Sequence record: OR062527
Source of the DNA: Escherichia phage vB_EcoM_11B_SA_NWU
Length of the DNA: 64,000 nucleotides
Direction: 5' to 3' (one strand)
How positions within the stretch are numbered: the first letter of the stretch is position 1; each line of letters opens with the position of its first letter. Made by a program: the position numbers and the translations under genes. Positions 3,030 through 8,979 of the stretch are shown here, one piece after another. The notes under the pieces were generated by a model that saw only the letters and a list, made by a program, of their open reading frames with translations, was not told the origin of the DNA and made no database searches.

Positions 3030-3064
3030 GGCTCATAATATCTCAATCATGAGCCTATGTAAAC
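3030..3064 (-). promoter_or_regulatory. early promoter GTTTAC-18-TATTAT overlapped by stem-loop (PeSL-like)
   Basis: -35 GTTTAC, 18-nt spacer, -10 TATTAT; inverted repeat AGGCTCAT/ATGAGCCT. Confidence 0.55.
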
Positions 3065-3365: not shown

Positions 3366-3401
3366 AGTTGTATAGTACCACGGAAGAACAGGGATGTAAA
3401 C
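3366..3401 (-). promoter_or_regulatory. early promoter GTTTAC-18-TACTAT
   Basis: shares flanks TTCACAAA..GTTTACAT and CTATCAACTACTGA with copy at 7478. Confidence 0.55.
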
Positions 3402-3532
3402 AGTTTTGTGAAAAAATTTTTAAAAATTTTTAGGAAATTCTAGGGCAGGGAGGGGCAATTAAAAGATAGGATAATATATTATAAAGGGTAGAAACTAAAT
3501 GATGCCTAGAGAGGCCCGGAAAGGCCTAGATA

Positions 3533-3569: not shown

Positions 3570-4043
3570 TTATTTGATTTGTTTAGCAGACCAAATGCGG
3601 TCTTTAATAATTTTTTGGATGTCTTCAACATACTCAAGAGAGTGAACATGTGGATTATCTTTGAAACTATAAGCACGGGCTAACTTTTGGCCTTCGGTTT
3701 TGATTACTAAAAGCTCTTTAAGGATAGCTTCATATTTAGAGATAATTCCTTTAACGATATTTTTTTCTTGTGCAGCTTTAGGATCTGCTTTAGGAGCAGG
3801 TTTACCCGAAGCCTTTGCAAAAGCAGCGCCAGTAGCAACTAAACTTTTCCAGGCCATACTAACTGCATTTCCCGTAAATCCTTCTGCTTTCATGTCGCGA
3901 GCAAATTGGAATCGTGATTCGTCAGAAGCATCTTTATAGGAATATTTACCCGCTGCAATGGCTGCTTTTGCAACAGCTTGAATTTCGGTGCTAGATGCTT
4001 CATTTAACACCGCTTCATTTAAAAATTGAGCATATGATTTCAT
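3570..4043 (-). CDS. internal-protein-like capsid-targeted protein, 157 aa (ORF-track N-terminal extension to 4208 rejected)
   Basis: N-terminus MKSYAQFLNE-AVLNE resembles T4 internal-protein CTS with LxE protease sites; Ala/Lys-rich basic body; SD AGGAAATAAG; late promoter TATAAATA upstream. Confidence 0.6.
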   Translation of the reverse strand: MKSYAQFLNEAVLNEASSTEIQAVAKAAIAAGKYSYKDASDESRFQFARDMKAEGFTGNAVSMAWKSLVATGAAFAKASGKPAPKADPKAAQEKNIVKGIISKYEAILKELLVIKTEGQKLARAYSFKDNPHVHSLEYVEDIQKIIKDRIWSAKQIK

Positions 4044-4083
4044 CTTATTTCCTGTTTTAATTCGTGGATTTAATATACTACTA

Positions 4084-4091
4084 TATTTATA
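4084..4091 (-). promoter_or_regulatory. late promoter TATAAATA for CTS-protein gene
   Basis: exact TATAAATA on minus strand 41 nt upstream of ATG. Confidence 0.55.
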
Positions 4092-4120
4092 CCAAAAAGC
4101 CCCAACCTTTCGGTCGGGGC
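4092..4120 (-). terminator. intrinsic terminator hairpin, copy B (near-identical to copy A)
   Basis: same stem, GAAA loop, U-run; 35 of 36 nt identical to copy A. Confidence 0.7.
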
Positions 4121-4164
4121 TAAGCCTTGCGGCAACCTTGTCGGGGTTCCACCTGCTAAGGCAA

Positions 4165-4330
4165 GTGTTTGTACGAAACGCCGGGATTCGAACCCGGTTA
4201 TCAAGCAATTGACGCTACTCAATATTTTTAAAAGGCCATATCTCGACCATATCCGAACGTTCCGTCAAAAACGCTACTCGGCTTACGGCAAAGATATTTC
4301 CTCGAATCGATAATTCGGTGCGCCGTTTCT
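4165..4330 (-). ncRNA. tRNA-like stable RNA(s), T4 species 1/2 RNA-like
   Basis: T-arm GGTTCGAATCC and acceptor-like 3' end but too long for one canonical tRNA; internal repeat GAGUAGCGU. Confidence 0.35.
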
Positions 4331-4432
4331 GCTGTGATATAAGGGGGCATTAACAAAACATAAAGATTTATTAATGCCAGTCCTTAAACAGGGAACATCA
4401 GTCCGACGACTTACCGGTAGCGACCCGGTTTC

Positions 4433-4783
4433 TTAATATTCTTTTAAAGCATCAATTTGTTCACGGCGTAAACGCCATAAATCAATTGCTTCATAAGCAG
4501 ATTCAACATTTCGAATTAGCCGACATTTATGTAAAGACTTATGATTTTGATATTGTGTAGATAACGGAATTTTATCTAAAAGGTCTTTACGTTCAAAGTA
4601 TTCGTAACCATCTAAGCCAAATGAACGATTTTTGAGAAATTGCCAATGACCAAATTCGTTTTCGACATAAACATAATCTGCATGCTGATAAAGCAAATTA
4701 ATTACACGTTCAGAAATAACAGTATCATTATGATTAAAATAGAATGTTAAATCATGAACTACTAAATAAACATTACCTTTCAT
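4433..4783 (-). CDS. hypothetical protein 116 aa inside tRNA region
   Basis: ORF with SD GAGGAAAA; starts right after tRNA-Arg 3' end. Confidence 0.5.
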   Translation of the reverse strand: MKGNVYLVVHDLTFYFNHNDTVISERVINLLYQHADYVYVENEFGHWQFLKNRSFGLDGYEYFERKDLLDKIPLSTQYQNHKSLHKCRLIRNVESAYEAIDLWRLRREQIDALKEY

Positions 4784-4801
4784 ATTTTCCTCACTTATAA
4801 T

Positions 4802-4877
4802 TGGTCGAGGCAGTAGGGATCGAACCTACGACCCAGGACTTAGAAGGTCCTTGCTCTTCCTTCTGAGCTATGCCCCG
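4802..4877 (-). tRNA. tRNA-Arg (anticodon UCU)
   Basis: manual fold: 7-bp acceptor, D and T arms, anticodon loop CUUCUAA, encoded CCA. Confidence 0.8.
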
Positions 4878-4880
4878 TAA

Positions 4881-5531
4881 TTAAAATTTCATTTTTCGAC
4901 CTTTAAACCATCCTTCTGGAATTGGGTCAGTTTTCTTAATACGTTTAGAAACTTTTTCATCTAATGAATGAATCCACATGGTTCCAAACTGAGAATTGTA
5001 TTTTCCAGAAGAATTAATCTTGGCTGAATCAGATATTTTCTTTTTCGTTTCTTTGTTATGTAGTTTACCTAAAAATCCAAAAGTTGGTTTTCTTATTCCA
5101 TTTTCCCATTGAATTTTCATAGATTCAGAAACTTTTTGCGATACCTTCGAATAGTCTCTTCTTAAGTTAGATTCTCTTACTCCAGATGAACAAATTGATG
5201 CAAAATTTGGACTATTACAAATATGATCCCAACCGCCTTCGCCACCAATCTTAAGATTATAAACGTTGCCTTTTAAAAATTCTTCTGTTACAATTTCAAG
5301 CTCTTTTGCGTACATTTCTTTAGCAGAAGAAAATTCATACAAAATTTCTTTTGTGAAATTATTTATTCCATACTTAGCAATTGCTCTTTTTATTCTTTTA
5401 CCAGAACCCATATAACCATCATTTATATTAGATGTTTTATGAGCTCCAACATAAACAGTTCCATTGATTAAATTAGTTATTTTATAAATCAGATAATGCA
5501 TATCTCCTCCATAGTTGAGATTATTATACAT
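4881..5531 (-). CDS. segB: GIY-YIG homing endonuclease (SegB-like)
   Basis: N-terminal HYLIYKITNLINGTVYVGAHK...DGYMGSG GIY-YIG module; embedded in tRNA cluster as in T4. Confidence 0.75.
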   Translation of the reverse strand: MYNNLNYGGDMHYLIYKITNLINGTVYVGAHKTSNINDGYMGSGKRIKRAIAKYGINNFTKEILYEFSSAKEMYAKELEIVTEEFLKGNVYNLKIGGEGGWDHICNSPNFASICSSGVRESNLRRDYSKVSQKVSESMKIQWENGIRKPTFGFLGKLHNKETKKKISDSAKINSSGKYNSQFGTMWIHSLDEKVSKRIKKTDPIPEGWFKGRKMKF

Positions 5532-5558
5532 TATTCCATTCCAATTGTAAACAAAAAA

Positions 5559-5631
5559 GGTGACCGATGGGAGTTGAACCCATGACTACGAGAATCACAA
5601 TCTCGAGTTCTACCAACTGAACTACGGCCAC
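5559..5631 (-). tRNA. tRNA-His (anticodon GUG), no encoded CCA
   Basis: manual fold: acceptor GUGGCCG/CGGUCAC, anticodon loop UUGUGAU, T-loop UUCAACU; non-canonical -1 position. Confidence 0.6.
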
Positions 5632-5745
5632 ATTAATACCTACTCCAACAATCAAGATGTCTTCACACGAAATTAAGAGAAGAGTGATCAGTTCAACCCC
5701 TATAATCGCGTCAAGTAGATATTAATGTGACAGTTGTCACAAATT

Positions 5746-5820
5746 TGGCGGACGTGATAGGATTCGAACCTATAACCAATCGCTTAACAGGCGATCGCTC
5801 TGCCATTGAGCTACACATCC
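5746..5820 (-). tRNA. tRNA-Asn (anticodon GUU)
   Basis: manual fold: acceptor GGAUGUG/CACGUCC, anticodon loop CUGUUAA, CCA encoded. Confidence 0.75.
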
Positions 5821-5824
5821 AAAT

Positions 5825-5911
5825 TGGTGGGGAGTGATGGAGTCGAACCACCCGAGTCGTAATGACAATGAATTTACAGTCCACACCGCTACCTCTACGG
5901 GATAACTCCCC
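5825..5911 (-). tRNA. tRNA-Tyr (anticodon GUA), long variable arm
   Basis: acceptor GGGGAGU/ACUCCCC, anticodon loop CUGUAAA, 87 nt type II. Confidence 0.7.
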
Positions 5912-5920
5912 AAATTAATT

Positions 5921-5995
5921 TGGTGGCCCTGGGTGGAATTGAACCACCATCTGGCGATTATGAGTCGCTTGCTTGAACCTTCCAGCTACAGGGCC
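5921..5995 (-). tRNA. tRNA-Met or Ile2 (anticodon CAU)
   Basis: acceptor GGCCCUG/CAGGGCC, anticodon loop CUCAUAA, CCA encoded. Confidence 0.7.
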
Positions 5996-5996
5996 T

Positions 5997-6072
5997 TGGT
6001 GCTGATTGACGGAATCGAACCGCCGACATCCTCATTACAAGTGAGGTGCTCTACCTACTGAGCTAAATCAGC
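5997..6072 (-). tRNA. tRNA-Thr (anticodon UGU)
   Basis: acceptor GCUGAUU/AAUCAGC, anticodon loop CUUGUAA. Confidence 0.8.
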
Positions 6073-6077
6073 AAAAC

Positions 6078-6167
6078 TGGCGGAGGCGATAGGATTCGAA
6101 CCTATGAGTCGCCGGAGCGACTGCCGGTTTTCAAGACCGGTGCATTCAACCACTCTGCCACGCCTCC
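6078..6167 (-). tRNA. tRNA-Ser (anticodon UGA), type II
   Basis: acceptor GGAGGCG/CGCCUCC, anticodon loop CUUGAAA, long variable arm. Confidence 0.8.
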
Positions 6168-6169
6168 AG

Positions 6170-6243
6170 TCTCCATACAAGGATTTGAACCTTGGACCTC
6201 CTGATCCCAAATCAGGCGCTCTACCAAACTGAGCTACACGGAG
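6170..6243 (-). tRNA. tRNA-Pro (anticodon UGG), no encoded CCA
   Basis: acceptor CUCCGUG/UAUGGAG, anticodon loop UUUGGGA; abuts tRNA-Ser. Confidence 0.75.
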
Positions 6244-6253
6244 TAAATTAAAT

Positions 6254-6327
<74 letters not shown>

Positions 6328-6332
6328 AAATT

Positions 6333-6419
6333 TGGTGCGAGAAGTGGGACTCGAACCCACAAGGAAATCATTCCGCAGCATTTTAAGTGCTGTGCCTTTA
6401 CCAATTTGACCATTCTCGC
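6333..6419 (-). tRNA. tRNA-Leu (anticodon UAA), type II
   Basis: acceptor GCGAGAA/UUCUCGC, anticodon loop CUUAAAA. Confidence 0.8.
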
Positions 6420-6420
6420 G

Positions 6421-6493
6421 CTGGGAATAAAGGATTCGAACCTTTGCATCCTGGAATCAAAATCCAGTGCCTTACCAACTTGGCTAATTCCCA
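6421..6493 (-). tRNA. tRNA-Gln (anticodon UUG), no encoded CCA
   Basis: acceptor UGGGAAU/AUUCCCA, anticodon loop UUUUGAU. Confidence 0.75.
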
Positions 6494-6590
6494 ATTATTA
6501 ACAAAGGCTCTTTAGCAAGAACCCTTGATGATAGAGGGTATTAATCAGTGCGGTATGAGTTAATAATAACAAATAATTCTTAAAGCATAT

Positions 6591-6878
6591 TTACCATTTA
6601 TGATAATACATATTTACGATGCATTCAAGGCCCAAAGGATTCCTGAAAATATCATATTCAAGAGGACCTTTTTCTGTTTCAATAAAGAAATCAAAATTTA
6701 CTGTATTAAATTTACGGTCTTCCTTCACTAATTTAACTTGAGAAGATGAACGGTCAACATAAACCTTTTCAACTTCAAAACATGTTAAAACGCCATAATC
6801 ATCAATCAAGGCTTTAGCCGCGTCTTGATCATATTTATATCCATTTTCAATGGACGATACTTTAGCATAAAGAATCAT
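6591..6878 (-). CDS. hypothetical protein 95 aa (hypervariable locus between tRNAs and 57B)
   Basis: ORF in operon with two upstream small ORFs; no recognisable motif. Confidence 0.5.
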   Translation of the reverse strand: MILYAKVSSIENGYKYDQDAAKALIDDYGVLTCFEVEKVYVDRSSSQVKLVKEDRKFNTVNFDFFIETEKGPLEYDIFRNPLGLECIVNMYYHKW

Positions 6879-6881
6879 TAT

Positions 6882-7271
6882 TTACCCTTCATCAACAATA
6901 GTATGAGTGTGGGCATTTACAATTTGCCACCAATCAAAGCGATTAGAACCATACATCGGTTTGTTTTCATTTTCTTTGATAATATCACGAAGTTCATCTT
7001 CAGTAGCGGCTTTCGCGATTAAATCAGCATATCCACCACGAGGATAATAATTATCACCTGCAAAAAGTAAAAAGTTTGGTTTAATGTTATTGAACTCTTC
7101 AAGAGTAATAACTGTTCCACCAGGTTGAACAATCTCTACATATTTATATCCTAATTTTTGAGCAGCATCTACTGCTTCAAGCAGGGTATCATGAGCCCAT
7201 CCAATTTGGCAATCTGGCTTTTCAGATGGATTAGCCTGATAATCCGCGTACACTTTATACATTCTATTCAC
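6882..7271 (-). CDS. hypothetical protein 129 aa
   Basis: ORF, start overlaps stop of upstream 61-aa ORF. Confidence 0.5.
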   Translation of the reverse strand: MNRMYKVYADYQANPSEKPDCQIGWAHDTLLEAVDAAQKLGYKYVEIVQPGGTVITLEEFNNIKPNFLLFAGDNYYPRGGYADLIAKAATEDELRDIIKENENKPMYGSNRFDWWQIVNAHTHTIVDEG

Positions 7272-7449
7272 CTTTAGAAATTTTATCCATAACGATAGCG
7301 ATTAAACCAATTAAAAATGCTACTACAAGTGAAAAAACATTTTCTGCTGTAGTTAATAATCCGCATATAAATCCAACAAACATTGAAAAACTAAAAGCGG
7401 AAGCAGAAATTGCAATAGCAACATTTCGAATTAATTCACAGCGTTTCAT
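7264..7449 (-). CDS. small hydrophobic membrane protein 61 aa
   Basis: two hydrophobic helices; SD GAGGAGAA; early promoter GTTTAC-18-TACTAT upstream. Confidence 0.5.
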   Translation of the reverse strand: MKRCELIRNVAIAISASAFSFSMFVGFICGLLTTAENVFSLVVAFLIGLIAIVMDKISKGE

Positions 7450-7477
7450 TTTATTCTCCTCAGTAGTTGATAGGGTA

Positions 7478-7507
7478 ATAGTATCACAACTAAAACCCTA
7501 TGTAAAC
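7478..7507 (-). promoter_or_regulatory. early promoter GTTTAC-18-TACTAT with stem-loop TAGGGT/ACCCTA
   Basis: sigma70-like hexamers; conserved flanks. Confidence 0.55.
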
Positions 7508-7519
7508 AACTTTGTGAAA

Positions 7520-8216
<697 letters not shown>

Positions 8217-8217
<1 letters not shown>

Positions 8218-8930
8218 TATAGTACCTTTAGTGTATTTTTAATTTTAGAAAAAAGTTCTTCAAGAGAACCATCGTTTGTAATTACTAAATCACCATCACG
8301 AATTGGCAATCCAGCTTCTGTAATATGTGTATCATTGGATTTTTGACCAGGACGAACTACATGAATTACTGTAGCACCCATCGCCCTAGCCGCATCCATT
8401 TCATGATCTTGACGAGTATCAGGAACGATATAATAATCATAACCTGAGTTAAATTTATCAAGATAATCTAAAGCAAATAATTTTACCCAATACATGCGGT
8501 CGAAGTTATTAACAATCAAATCCGTACCTAGGGCTTGCATCAGACGACGGACTGACCATTGATCTTCAATATTATTTATAACGTCAATAATCTTGTTAAA
8601 TGCTACGGAATTAACTGCGTCATCAAAAACAAACACACCTTTAATTGGGCTTTTACTATTAAGATAGCAAAATGCTTGTTCCATAATCGTGATTACTTCT
8701 AATTTAGTCAGATTTAAATTAGTCTCACGATCATAGTCAATTCCTTCAAACTCTTTACGAGTTAAGCAAGGATAGTCAGTGTTTGCTGCAAATACGCCCC
8801 ATGCATAAGCCAATGCATCCTTAATAGGACCAGCAAGTTGGTATTTAACTGCAGAATAATTGCTCATGATAAAATCAGCAGTAGTATCTTTTCCACTACG
8901 CTTTACACCGCTTAAAAAGATTAGTTTCAT
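8217..8930 (-). CDS. 1: deoxynucleoside monophosphate kinase (gp1); ORF-track start 8969 trimmed to ATG with SD GAGGAGAA
   Basis: P-loop GVKRSGKDT; N-terminus MKLIFLSG... as T4 gp1. Confidence 0.85.
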
Positions 8931-8979
8931 GTGTTTCTCCTCAAATTTAATTAAGATTATAACACACAAAACTGAAGCA

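Follow-up and report, generated by a model that had tools for sequence, protein, structure and literature searches.

The polymorphic ip1 locus of T-even phages is well known (Repoila et al., 1994, as cited in PMC2839356 and PMC12373910), and conserved flanks have been reported for the ipI locus (10.1101/2025.11.20.689424). The injected proteins IPI, IPII, and IPIII inhibit restriction of the GmrSD type by blocking specific enzymes (PMC12373910). PeSL-like elements, which associate an early promoter with a stem-loop, have been described at IP loci, and the module is recognized as a shuffling element in T4-like phages (PMC2839356; PMC4122927). The early promoter consensus published for PST and T4 reads TTTACW-N17-TAYWAT (PMC4122927). 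Both the polymorphism of the ip locus and the promoter/stem-loop modules that accompany it have been on record since 1994.

The present analysis concerns three small ORFs of Escherichia phage vB_EcoM_11B_SA_NWU (OR062527), located between gene 57B and the tRNA cluster in a window of 64,000 nucleotides, i.e., the whole stretch of DNA that was analyzed (Table 1). A preliminary description, made from the sequence alone, had presented these ORFs as a probable hypervariable accessory locus occupying the place of T4 ipI. With a probability of roughly 0.9, they are instead the orthologues of T4 tRNA.4, tRNA.3, and tRNA.2, a conserved operon of the Tevenvirinae that lies between the polymorphic ip slot and the tRNA cluster and likely consists of early host-directed accessory genes. 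The locus is ordinary and already known, and the detail added here is modest.

Table 1. Coordinates of the features of the 57B–tRNA interval in the window.
Feature	Position	Strand	Remarks
57B = Acb1 (anti-CBASS phosphodiesterase)	7520-7975	minus	Pfam PF23474, E 2.6e-60; outside the three-gene set
Early-promoter + stem-loop module (PeSL-like element of the ip locus)	7450-7519	minus	Also the empty ip slot, 57B to tRNA.4
tRNA.4 orthologue	7264-7449	minus	61 aa; predicted inner-membrane hairpin protein, two hydrophobic segments
tRNA.3 orthologue	6882-7262 (126 aa, ATG 7262) or to 7271 (129 aa, GTG 7271)	minus	Two domains
tRNA.3 N-half	~7053-7262	minus	Polymorphic
tRNA.3 C-half	6882-7076	minus	Conserved copy of a widespread ~60-aa phage domain
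tRNA.2 orthologue	6591-6878	minus	95 aa; soluble protein
Spacer, tRNA.2 to tRNA-Gln	6494-6590	minus	97 nt; hairpin 6502-6527 (centroid fold)
tRNA-Gln	6420-6493		Downstream of the spacer

Identity of the Three Genes

The three minus-strand ORFs lie at the coordinates first reported and are tightly packed, with only 1 nt and 3 nt between consecutive genes, and their products begin with MKRCELIRNV, MYKVYADYQA, and MILYAKVSSI. No motif had been recognized in any of them; each nevertheless matches a PHROG over its full length, namely PHROG 1692 for tRNA.4 (E 6e-35), PHROG 1411 for tRNA.3 (E 3e-56), and PHROG 2023 for tRNA.2 (E 6e-47). Homologues bearing the names tRNA.4, tRNA.3, and tRNA.2 occur in identical order in the annotations of RB55 and vB_SsoM_113, and amino acid identity to RB55, a phage of species T4, amounts to 100% for tRNA.4, 61% for tRNA.3, and 93% for tRNA.2. 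On these sequence grounds, the ORFs are orthologues of tRNA.4, tRNA.3, and tRNA.2 of T4, early genes that are conserved, already catalogued, and functionally uncharacterized. All three have been named T4 ORFs ever since the tRNA region was sequenced, and they deserve these labels in annotation rather than treatment as novel genes. In the literature searched, no text mentions more than one of these three genes by name.

The real product of tRNA.3 is probably the shorter of the two forms given in Table 1, because nearly all aligned homologues begin with MYKVYADY and an ATG stands at the corresponding position, 7262, one base past the upstream TAG.

The expectation that the 61-aa protein spans the membrane twice agrees with the hydropathy profile of tRNA.4, in which two hydrophobic segments (approximately residues 10–33 and 37–54) predict a two-helix protein of the inner membrane. 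Compared with characterized families of holins and small membrane proteins, tRNA.4 matched only the holin family phrog_785 (E 0.039) and Pfam DUFs below threshold, with no hit in NCBIfam. Scans of the three proteins against Pfam, NCBIfam, and PHROGs identified PHROGs of unknown function only; matches to DUF5092, DUF7554, TusC, and phrog_785 fell far under the cut-offs and were rejected. Remote homology searches and structure prediction, which had been proposed as a check, thus yielded the PHROG matches and a confident model of tRNA.3 (see below), and found no characterized relative. The AF2 model of tRNA.2 (pLDDT 53) was too poor for a fold search.

The Promoter Module and the Empty ip Slot

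The slot in which ip genes classically vary lies, by sequence comparison, between 57B and tRNA.4, so that the truly variable site adjoins the three genes. Its upstream border, 57B/Acb1, is conserved and shares 100% amino acid identity with RB55. In relatives, the slot contains one to three genes (ipI, ip5, ip6, ip9, or ipV), each preceded by its own early-promoter/stem-loop module, and the idea that T-even phages swap genes in this neighborhood is borne out by this varying content: the window and slur02 are without a cassette, T4 and vB_Eco_CP have one, and SholemSchwarzbard has two. The claim that the three genes stand where T4 carries ipI does not hold, since T4-type RB55 possesses both, in the order 57B, ipI, tRNA.4, tRNA.3, tRNA.2, tRNA-Gln. 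Compared with T4, the window is devoid of exactly one module plus ipI (~360 bp), and the sequences on both sides are 97–100% identical.

In the window, the slot is reduced to a 70-bp gap after 57B, in which a promoter scan found a T4-type early promoter. Its −35 box GTTTAC (7502–7507) and its −10 box TACTAT (7478–7483), the latter preceded by TG, are separated by 18 nt; reading TTTACA as the −35 hexamer instead shortens the spacer to 17 nt, and the resulting TTTACA-N17-TACTAT fits the PST/T4 consensus. An inverted repeat, TAGGGT (7495–7500) and ACCCTA (7471–7476), surrounds the −10 box, and the DNA fold of the promoter region reaches −8.1 kcal/mol (z = −2.06). A Shine-Dalgarno sequence, GAGGAG, follows, with its GGAG at 7456–7459. 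Aligned with each other, nine intergenic modules of five phages show this ~60-bp module in front of every cassette, in near-identical form ahead of ipI, of ip5-type genes, and of tRNA.4; depending on the phage, one, two, or three copies of it occupy the locus, and the two arms of the stem change in a compensating manner from cassette to cassette (TAGGGT/ACCCTA vs. TGATGAGGT/ACCTCATCA). As had been noticed at the outset, the promoter with its conserved flanks and stem-loop recurs elsewhere in the window, at 3372–3413 and 3035–3064; the spaced module pattern matched 6 times where 0.85 matches were expected.

The capsid-targeting sequence that defines IPs, an N-terminal MKT[FY][KQ]EF...E that the prohead protease cleaves, is carried as MKT[FY][KQ]EF by the ip genes of relatives; it was rightly said to be missing from the three proteins (0 of 3), and no ORF of the 64-kb window begins with it either. 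Because the ip1 slot holds no ip gene and no ORF of the 64 kb carries this sequence, and because IPs block specific GmrSD-type restriction enzymes, the host range of the phage among strains with such systems is predicted to be narrower.

A single module without an ip gene was found in 2 of the 60 records sampled. The single module of the window is related to the modules that flank the cassette in cassette-bearing relatives, and an empty slot would be the expected product of homologous recombination between two such modules, unless no cassette ever entered the site. The structure of the junction suggests a role of the module in the recombination and excision of cassettes, and the sequence could fit an ancestral state or a deletion, whether natural or made in the laboratory, equally well. 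The missing ip gene might also be an artefact, either a collapse of the repeated module during assembly or a deletion upon laboratory propagation, given that the 60-bp direct repeats flanking the cassette in relatives can collapse in assembly or recombine on passage, and that the empty state is rare. Against this explanation, which is improbable, the same single-module junction recurs in the independent isolates slur02, slur04, slur11, slur13, A6-6, PTE-Eco15, and vB_EcoM_FT, and the junction of the window is clean, matching that of slur02 almost base for base.

Two-domain Architecture and Polymorphism of tRNA.3

Within the conserved operon, tRNA.3 is the one gene that is partly polymorphic. 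Nucleotide identity to T4 drops to 33–55% in its N-half, is 80–85% in its C-half, and rises to 92–98% in the sequence flanking the N-half divergence. Searches by tblastn (E ≤ 0.01) detected the C-half in 783 records and the N-half in 353; at this threshold, roughly half of the C-half records yielded no N-half.

The C-half bears the motif FLLFaGxxYYPxGGxxDL...DWWQIVNxxT and belongs to a family of ~60-aa domains for which an exhaustive HMM search recovered 620 clusters (at least 620 at 50% identity). Most members of this family are stand-alone proteins of 60–100 aa, and stand-alone homologues of the C-domain are encoded by unrelated phages of Staphylococcus, Cellulophaga, Stenotrophomonas, and Brevundimonas. 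A 2031-aa repeat protein (P0080) also recovered by the exhaustive search is a spurious match of low-complexity type. In a Pfam scan of 100 family members, the informative fusions came down to one protein with an N-terminal XRE-type HTH, too isolated to interpret. Alignment of the N-half with the C-domain family by hhalign gave a moderate score (E 3.4e-5, 72% probability) and the order of secondary structure elements matches between the two halves, for which reasons tRNA.3, a soluble protein, seems to have arisen by tandem duplication of one ~60-aa phage-specific α/β domain.

For tRNA.3, AF2 gave a confident model (pLDDT 88.7). Foldseek searches with it returned nothing below E 0.18 in the PDB and, in BFVD, matches only to uncharacterized phage proteins; sequence and profile searches of the PDB with alignments A1, A2, and A4 returned nothing, even at E ≤ 10. 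No solved structure or local Pfam model fits the tRNA.3 domain, and the protein database attaches PF26894 to homologues of tRNA.3 and PF27001 to those of tRNA.2.

A tentative and rather doubtful reading would place tRNA.3 in a large uncharacterized phage family defined by [YF]LLFaGxxYYPxGGxxDL...DWWQIVDxxT, whose domain T-even phages would have duplicated, the N-copy acting as a specificity module exchanged between near-identical genomes. Such an exchange would fit the binding of a variable host factor, e.g., a defense system, or an escape from its recognition. If so, Acb1, the ip genes, and the three genes would together form a contiguous early counter-defense island at the head of the tRNA operon. 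As a lead toward a host-interaction role of this very widespread phage domain, the mosaicism of tRNA.3 at the domain level is cheap to test.

Transcription and Adjacency to the tRNA Genes

The early promoter, the only one of the operon, would drive a translationally coupled set of three genes. A terminator scan found no terminator-like site in 6300–8300, and the only Rfam family in 4000–8000 is tRNA, the rest being sub-threshold noise; a stable hairpin precedes tRNA-Gln. As the operon is followed by no terminator, its transcript would probably run on past tRNA.2 through tRNA-Gln and the rest of the tRNA cluster. In T4, trna.2 and trna.3 are classed as early RNA and early protein, trna.4 as early RNA, and the tRNAs as early too (PMC9697503 supplement); two of the three T4 proteins, Trna.2 and Trna.3, have been detected in a proteome study.

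A functional tie between the three genes and the phage tRNAs, through tRNA maturation or through protection of translation or of tRNAs against host anticodon nucleases, could be read from this shared early expression and the absence of a terminator, and from the location of the tRNA genes some 90–600 nt past tRNA.2 in all five genera examined. Several observations leave such a tie with little probability. The three proteins display no signature of RNA binding, nuclease, ligase, or transferase and have no structural relative, the C-domain of tRNA.3 stands alone in many unrelated phages, and in Aeromonas phage 25, where tRNA genes lie near 57B, the annotation of that region names no ORF as homologous to tRNA.2, tRNA.3, or tRNA.4. 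A shared early transcription unit explains the adjacency more simply.

Conservation of the Operon

Homologues of tRNA.4, tRNA.3, and tRNA.2 are present in 790, 763, and 803 phage records, respectively. In 428 of these 790 records, the tRNA.4 protein shows 99% identity or more, and in 505 of the 803, tRNA.2 shows 90% or more. The order 57B, ip genes, tRNA.4, tRNA.3, tRNA.2, tRNA genes is kept in the five genera of Tevenvirinae that were compared (Tequatrovirus, Mosigvirus, Gelderlandvirus, Marfavirus, and Kanagawavirus), as are the three reading frames, which evolve under purifying selection (dN/dS 0.14–0.33 with many synonymous changes across genera; 0.14 for tRNA.4 vs. Mosigvirus). In RB49 and Aeromonas phage 25, the small ORFs found downstream of 57B are unrelated ones, with dmd among those of RB49.

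Such conservation does not suit a hypervariable locus, and on the sequence comparison the variation is confined to the ip slot and the N-half of tRNA.3. The comparative alignment called for by the preliminary description found the three genes themselves conserved, and the variability next to them, in the ip slot, and in the 5′ half of tRNA.3. That description had staked its proposal on the ORFs not combining a conserved order across all relatives with known housekeeping functions: their order is conserved, and no known housekeeping function attaches to them. It is very unlikely that the three genes are themselves a hypervariable cassette that replaced ipI and was swapped in for anti-defense or host takeover. 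The recognized shuffling role of the promoter module, the genuine polymorphism of the tRNA.3 N-half, and the plasticity seen downstream of 57B at the scale of the T4 superfamily (RB49, Aeromonas phage 25) all speak for such a cassette. Yet T4 has both ipI and the three genes, the syntenic set is retained in some 760–800 records and in five genera, with tRNA.4 near-invariant in 428 records, and the variable genes of relatives sit upstream of tRNA.4 and do not replace it. That the ORFs are a mere leader of the tRNA precursor transcript, as dispensable stretches without assigned function between a promoter and a tRNA cluster might be, is hardly credible in view of their purifying selection, their frames preserved in five genera, the early-protein class of T4 Trna.2 and Trna.3, and the confident model of tRNA.3.

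Function of the Operon

For the reading of the interval as a conserved operon of T4 orthologues, accessory host interaction is the most likely function. The three proteins would act early on host components, in conditional host takeover or counter-defense rather than in core replication or assembly. In the HIDEN-SEQ essentiality table, derived from transposon saturation, T4 trna.2, trna.3, and trna.4 are all listed as “Non-essential” on K-12, and early, non-essential orthologues in T4 fit accessory genes. One HIDEN-SEQ contrast reports no significant effect for any of the three and therefore lends no positive evidence to a role in counter-defense. Early expression, protein detection, and non-essentiality would be carried over to the present phage by analogy with T4. 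The proposal of an accessory early operon consequently stands as regards the early-type promoter and the early, non-essential T4 orthologues, and falls as regards the hypervariable nature of the element.

Comparison with Known Systems

The closest counterpart of the locus is the T4 set tRNA.4, tRNA.3, and tRNA.2 (UniProt P13322, P13323, and P13324 according to the PMC9697503 supplement), with which it shares position, order, strand, and promoter module. The tRNA.4 protein is identical to that of T4, tRNA.2 is 93% identical, and the C-half of tRNA.3 87.5% identical, whereas the N-half of tRNA.3 is a different allele and the protein measures 126 aa here vs. 136 aa in T4. The polymorphic ip1 locus of T-even phages occupies the same chromosomal site, and each ip gene of the relatives has its own promoter module; the three genes are neighbors of this locus, not members, and the slot itself holds the promoter module only. 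Small phage anti-defense proteins (Acr proteins, Dmd) can be listed as a fold-level analogy for tRNA.3. Finally, the PeSL and PeSL-like cassettes (Arbiol et al., 2010, PMC2839356; Comeau et al., 2014, PMC4122927) likewise combine an early promoter with a stem-loop and are repeated beside exchangeable small genes. The module described here is an AT-rich T-even variant with its stem around the −10 box, whereas PeSLs of the RB49 type possess a GC-rich, terminator-like stem.

Identity of the three ORFs

The three ORFs lying between the tRNA cluster and 57B are almost certainly tRNA.4, tRNA.3 and tRNA.2 (the trio), set next to an empty ip slot, i.e., the interval that houses internal-protein (ip) genes in relatives. 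The interval 6400-8100 matched 707 phage records by megablast, nearly all of them Tequatrovirus, at no more than 98.3% identity. RB55, which belongs to the species Tequatrovirus T4, is annotated with 57A, 57B, ipI, tRNA.4 (putative membrane protein), tRNA.3, tRNA.2 and tRNA-Gln in that order, and the same three names are given in Shigella phage vB_SsoM_113. All three proteins matched their PHROGs over the full length, each PHROG being labelled as of unknown function. The preliminary description was accurate as to the ORFs and the early promoter with its stem-loop, which are seen in the sequence; its proposal that the trio stands in for ipI of T4 was mistaken, as in T4 these three genes follow ipI.

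Features of the locus and of related loci. Record counts are tblastn matches; 57B is included for scale, and segment values are nucleotide identity to T4 along the operon.
Feature	Coordinates	Strand	Details
tRNA-Gln	6420-6493		First tRNA gene of the cluster; downstream border of the trio
tRNA.2	6591-6878	-	95 aa; 93% aa identity to RB55; PHROG 2023 (E 6e-47); 803 phage records, 505 at at least 90%
tRNA.3	6882-7271	-	129 aa from GTG start; 61% aa identity to RB55; PHROG 1411 (E 3e-56); 763 phage records
tRNA.4	7264-7449	-	61 aa; 100% aa identity to RB55; PHROG 1692 (E 6e-35); 790 phage records, 428 at at least 99%
ip slot	7450-7519		Between 57B and tRNA.4
-10 element	7478-7483	-	TACTAT, preceded by TG
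-35 element	7502-7507	-	GTTTAC
57B	7520-7975	-	151-aa ORF; upstream neighbour of the trio; 1485 phage records, 498 at at least 99%
tRNA.2 segment	6573-6872		92-98%
tRNA.3 C-half	6873-7052		80-85%
tRNA.3 N-half	7053-7263		33-55%
tRNA.4 segment	7263-7502		97-98%
Extra paralogue, Klebsiella phage PWKp18	2449-2634 (locus L006)		61-63 aa, MYxLFMWSRYYPxGG...
Extra paralogue, Edwardsiella phage PEi26	3188-3379 (locus L009)		61-63 aa, MYxLFMWSRYYPxGG...

Because the homologues of the middle protein almost all begin with MYKVYADY (alignment A1, of tRNA.3 homologues), its real start is probably the ATG at 7262, giving a product of 126 aa. A single base then separates this ATG from the tRNA.4 stop, three bases lie between the tRNA.3 stop and the tRNA.2 ATG, and tRNA.4 has the Shine-Dalgarno sequence GAGGAG. 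A similar point concerns gene 1 (dNMP kinase; 8217-8969, minus strand), of which the mechanical ORF runs from a TTG (250 aa); in relatives the gene is annotated at 241 aa (726 nt), and translation probably begins at an internal ATG (MKLIFLSG...). The 57B protein is 100% identical to that of T4/RB55 and matches Pfam PF23474 (E 2.6e-60); since 57B is now known as Acb1, an anti-CBASS enzyme (PMC9117128; HIDEN-SEQ preprint, 10.1101/2025.11.20.689424), we assign it as this anti-CBASS cyclic-nucleotide phosphodiesterase, which places a known counter-defence gene directly upstream of the ip slot.

An empty ip slot with a single promoter module

The promoter scan and motif coordinates place a T4-type early promoter in the 70-bp gap 3′ of 57B. 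It reads TTTACA-N17-TACTAT, the published PST/T4 PeSL promoter consensus being TTTACW-N17-TAYWAT (Comeau et al., 2014, PMC4122927), and an inverted repeat (TAGGGT/ACCCTA) encloses the -10 box (DNA fold -8.1 kcal/mol, z = -2.1). Alignment of intergenic regions from five phages defined a module of ~60 bp, composed of TTTCACAAAGTTGTTTACAT, a stem arm, GTGATACTAT, the second stem arm and TCAA, which precedes every gene in the slot; the arms vary by cassette yet stay complementary (e.g., TAGGGT/ACCCTA vs. TGATGAGGT/ACCTCATCA). The window and slur02 have one module copy and no ip gene, T4/RB55 and vB_Eco_CP two copies and one ip gene, and SholemSchwarzbard three copies and two ip genes. The spaced module pattern occurs six times in the window, where chance would give 0.85, and further copies lie at 3372-3413 and, as a weaker match, 3035-3064 (minus strand; TTTCACAAAaCTGTTTACA...GTGgTACTAT).

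Global alignment with T4 leaves 57B and tRNA.4 97-100% identical throughout, with a clean gap of ~360 bp that corresponds to one module plus ipI, and the sole module of the window has almost the same sequence as the one preceding tRNA.4 in T4. Such a single-module junction is as expected from recombination between repeated modules, and could equally represent an unfilled site. Of the 575 records matching the junction, 60 were sampled at even spacing, and the junction was uninterrupted in slur02 and vB_EcoM_FT alone; slur phages, A6-6 and PTE-Eco15, among the best megablast matches, share this state, so that the empty slot is rare but recurrent. No ORF start in any frame of the whole window carries the capsid-targeting sequence (CTS) motif MK[TS][FY][KQ]EF, and all five other Tevenvirinae loci examined have one or two CTS-bearing genes beside 57B. 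The lack of a CTS-bearing ORF may affect sensitivity to GmrSD-type restriction.

Downstream of the promoter, the terminator scan returned no terminator-like site in 6300-8300, and no Rfam family besides tRNA matched in the trio region. The sole structure ahead of tRNA-Gln is a stable hairpin without a T-run (6502-6527, minus strand; CAAGGGTTCTT-GCTA-AAGAGCCTTTG), which lies 8 nt upstream of that gene. The segment that contains it shares 98% identity with T4. Judged by fold energy alone the hairpin falls short of significance (z -1.26 over the whole spacer), and it might serve in processing or attenuation of the tRNA precursor.

Conservation of the trio

The locus was examined in four further genera (Mosigvirus LF82-8, Gelderlandvirus STP4-a, Marfavirus PWKp18 and Kanagawavirus PEi26), all of which have, in order, 57A, 57B, two CTS-bearing ip genes (MKTY.EF...), tRNA.4, tRNA.3 and tRNA.2, with tRNA genes ~90-600 nt past tRNA.2 and sometimes one extra small ORF between tRNA.4 and tRNA.3. 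Pairwise dN/dS of the trio is 0.14-0.33 (Nei-Gojobori, against T4, Mosigvirus and Kanagawavirus), and the three ORFs are genuine genes kept under purifying selection. In RB49 and Aeromonas phage 25, which lie outside Tevenvirinae, 57B is followed by unrelated small ORFs, so the region is plastic over the whole T4 superfamily but fixed within Tevenvirinae. The proposed hypervariable accessory locus holds as regards early accessory genes and a modular promoter, but the trio itself is not hypervariable.

tRNA.3 combines a polymorphic N-half with a widespread C-domain

Identity to T4 changes abruptly along the operon, the fall setting in exactly at the tRNA.3 start. In alignment A1, pairwise identity averages 47% over the N-half and 74% over the C-half. 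Separate tblastn searches found the C-half in 783 records (538 at at least 80% identity) and the N-half in 353 (270 at at least 80%), so about half of the phages with a near-identical C-half, including T4, RB6 and RB33, have an N-half too divergent to detect. This difference reflects modular allelic replacement rather than gradual drift.

The confident AlphaFold2 model of tRNA.3 (pLDDT 88.7) consists of two alike beta-loop-beta-alpha-beta-beta halves. Moderate support for a tandem duplication comes from the N-half profile, which aligns in register with the C-domain family profile (hhalign, E 3.4e-5, probability 72%). An exhaustive HMM search gathered 620 C-domain clusters at 50% identity, mostly stand-alone proteins of 60-100 aa with the motif [YF]LLFaGxxYYPxGGxxDL...DWWQIVDxxT. 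Among cultured phages the domain occurs, for example, as 70-aa versions in those of Salmonella, and further carriers are Staphylococcus, Klebsiella, Erwinia, Cellulophaga, Stenotrophomonas and Brevundimonas phages. The family matched no Pfam model (local copy) and no PDB sequence. The extra stand-alone paralogue that Marfavirus and Kanagawavirus carry between tRNA.4 and tRNA.3 hints that the domain was duplicated repeatedly at this locus. The sole informative domain fusion among 100 family members is P0120, a protein from the same search, in which an N-terminal XRE-type helix-turn-helix (Pfam HTH_31, E 1e-9) is joined to a tRNA.3-like C-domain.

Expression and proposed role

Viable T4 deletions extending from e towards 57 take out the whole trio segment. 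Broida and Abelson reportedly sequenced the region in 1985 and found overlapping early, middle and late transcripts. In T4, trna.2 and trna.3 belong to the early-RNA and early-protein classes, trna.4, like the tRNA genes beside it, to the early RNA class, and tRNA.4 is annotated as a predicted membrane protein, as in the RB55 record (PMC9697503 supplement). The hydropathy profile of tRNA.4 shows two hydrophobic segments flanked by basic residues; the predicted structure of tRNA.2 (pLDDT 53) is too low in confidence for use. Entries of the HIDEN-SEQ supplement (10.1101/2025.11.20.689424) score all three genes as non-essential, with insertions recovered at 23/25 (trna.2), 39/40 (trna.3) and 16/17 (trna.4) TA sites and no significant change in one contrast.

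The trio most likely forms a conserved, translationally coupled early operon heading the tRNA transcription unit, with the module promoter driving it during the first minutes of infection. Its predicted products are three small proteins, one in the membrane and two soluble; they are dispensable in laboratory hosts, and one of them carries a swappable domain. Their most probable role would be a conditional interaction with host components, in takeover or counter-defence (probability about 0.5); the neighbouring Acb1 and internal proteins have roles of just this kind. A function linked to the tRNAs, whose transcription unit the operon would head, is improbable.

Comparison with known systems

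The tRNA cluster (4802-6493, minus strand) comprises 11 genes (Gln, Leu, Gly, Pro, Ser, Thr, Met, Tyr, Asn, His and Arg). Between tRNA-Arg (4802-4877) and tRNA-His (5559-5631), which in the nearest relatives, vB_Eco_CP and slur02, are just a few bases apart, lies a GIY-YIG (SegE-like) homing-endonuclease ORF of 216 aa (4881-5531, minus strand). This ORF resembles a mobile insertion, at a site differing from that of T4 segB. The cluster is larger than that of T4/RB55, with its eight tRNA genes, and resembles the T2-type cluster (PMC2330249).

The trio locus and its polymorphism are already known; what is new is modest, namely that the ip slot is empty in this phage, that the tRNA.3 N-half shows sharp modular polymorphism and that the C-domain family is broad. 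The ipI locus has highly conserved flanks and differing content (HIDEN-SEQ preprint, 10.1101/2025.11.20.689424), and PeSL-like early-promoter/stem-loop elements were described at two highly variable IP loci (Repoila et al., 1994, as cited by Arbiol et al., 2010, PMC2839356); these accounts cover exactly the kind of module structure found at the ip slot.
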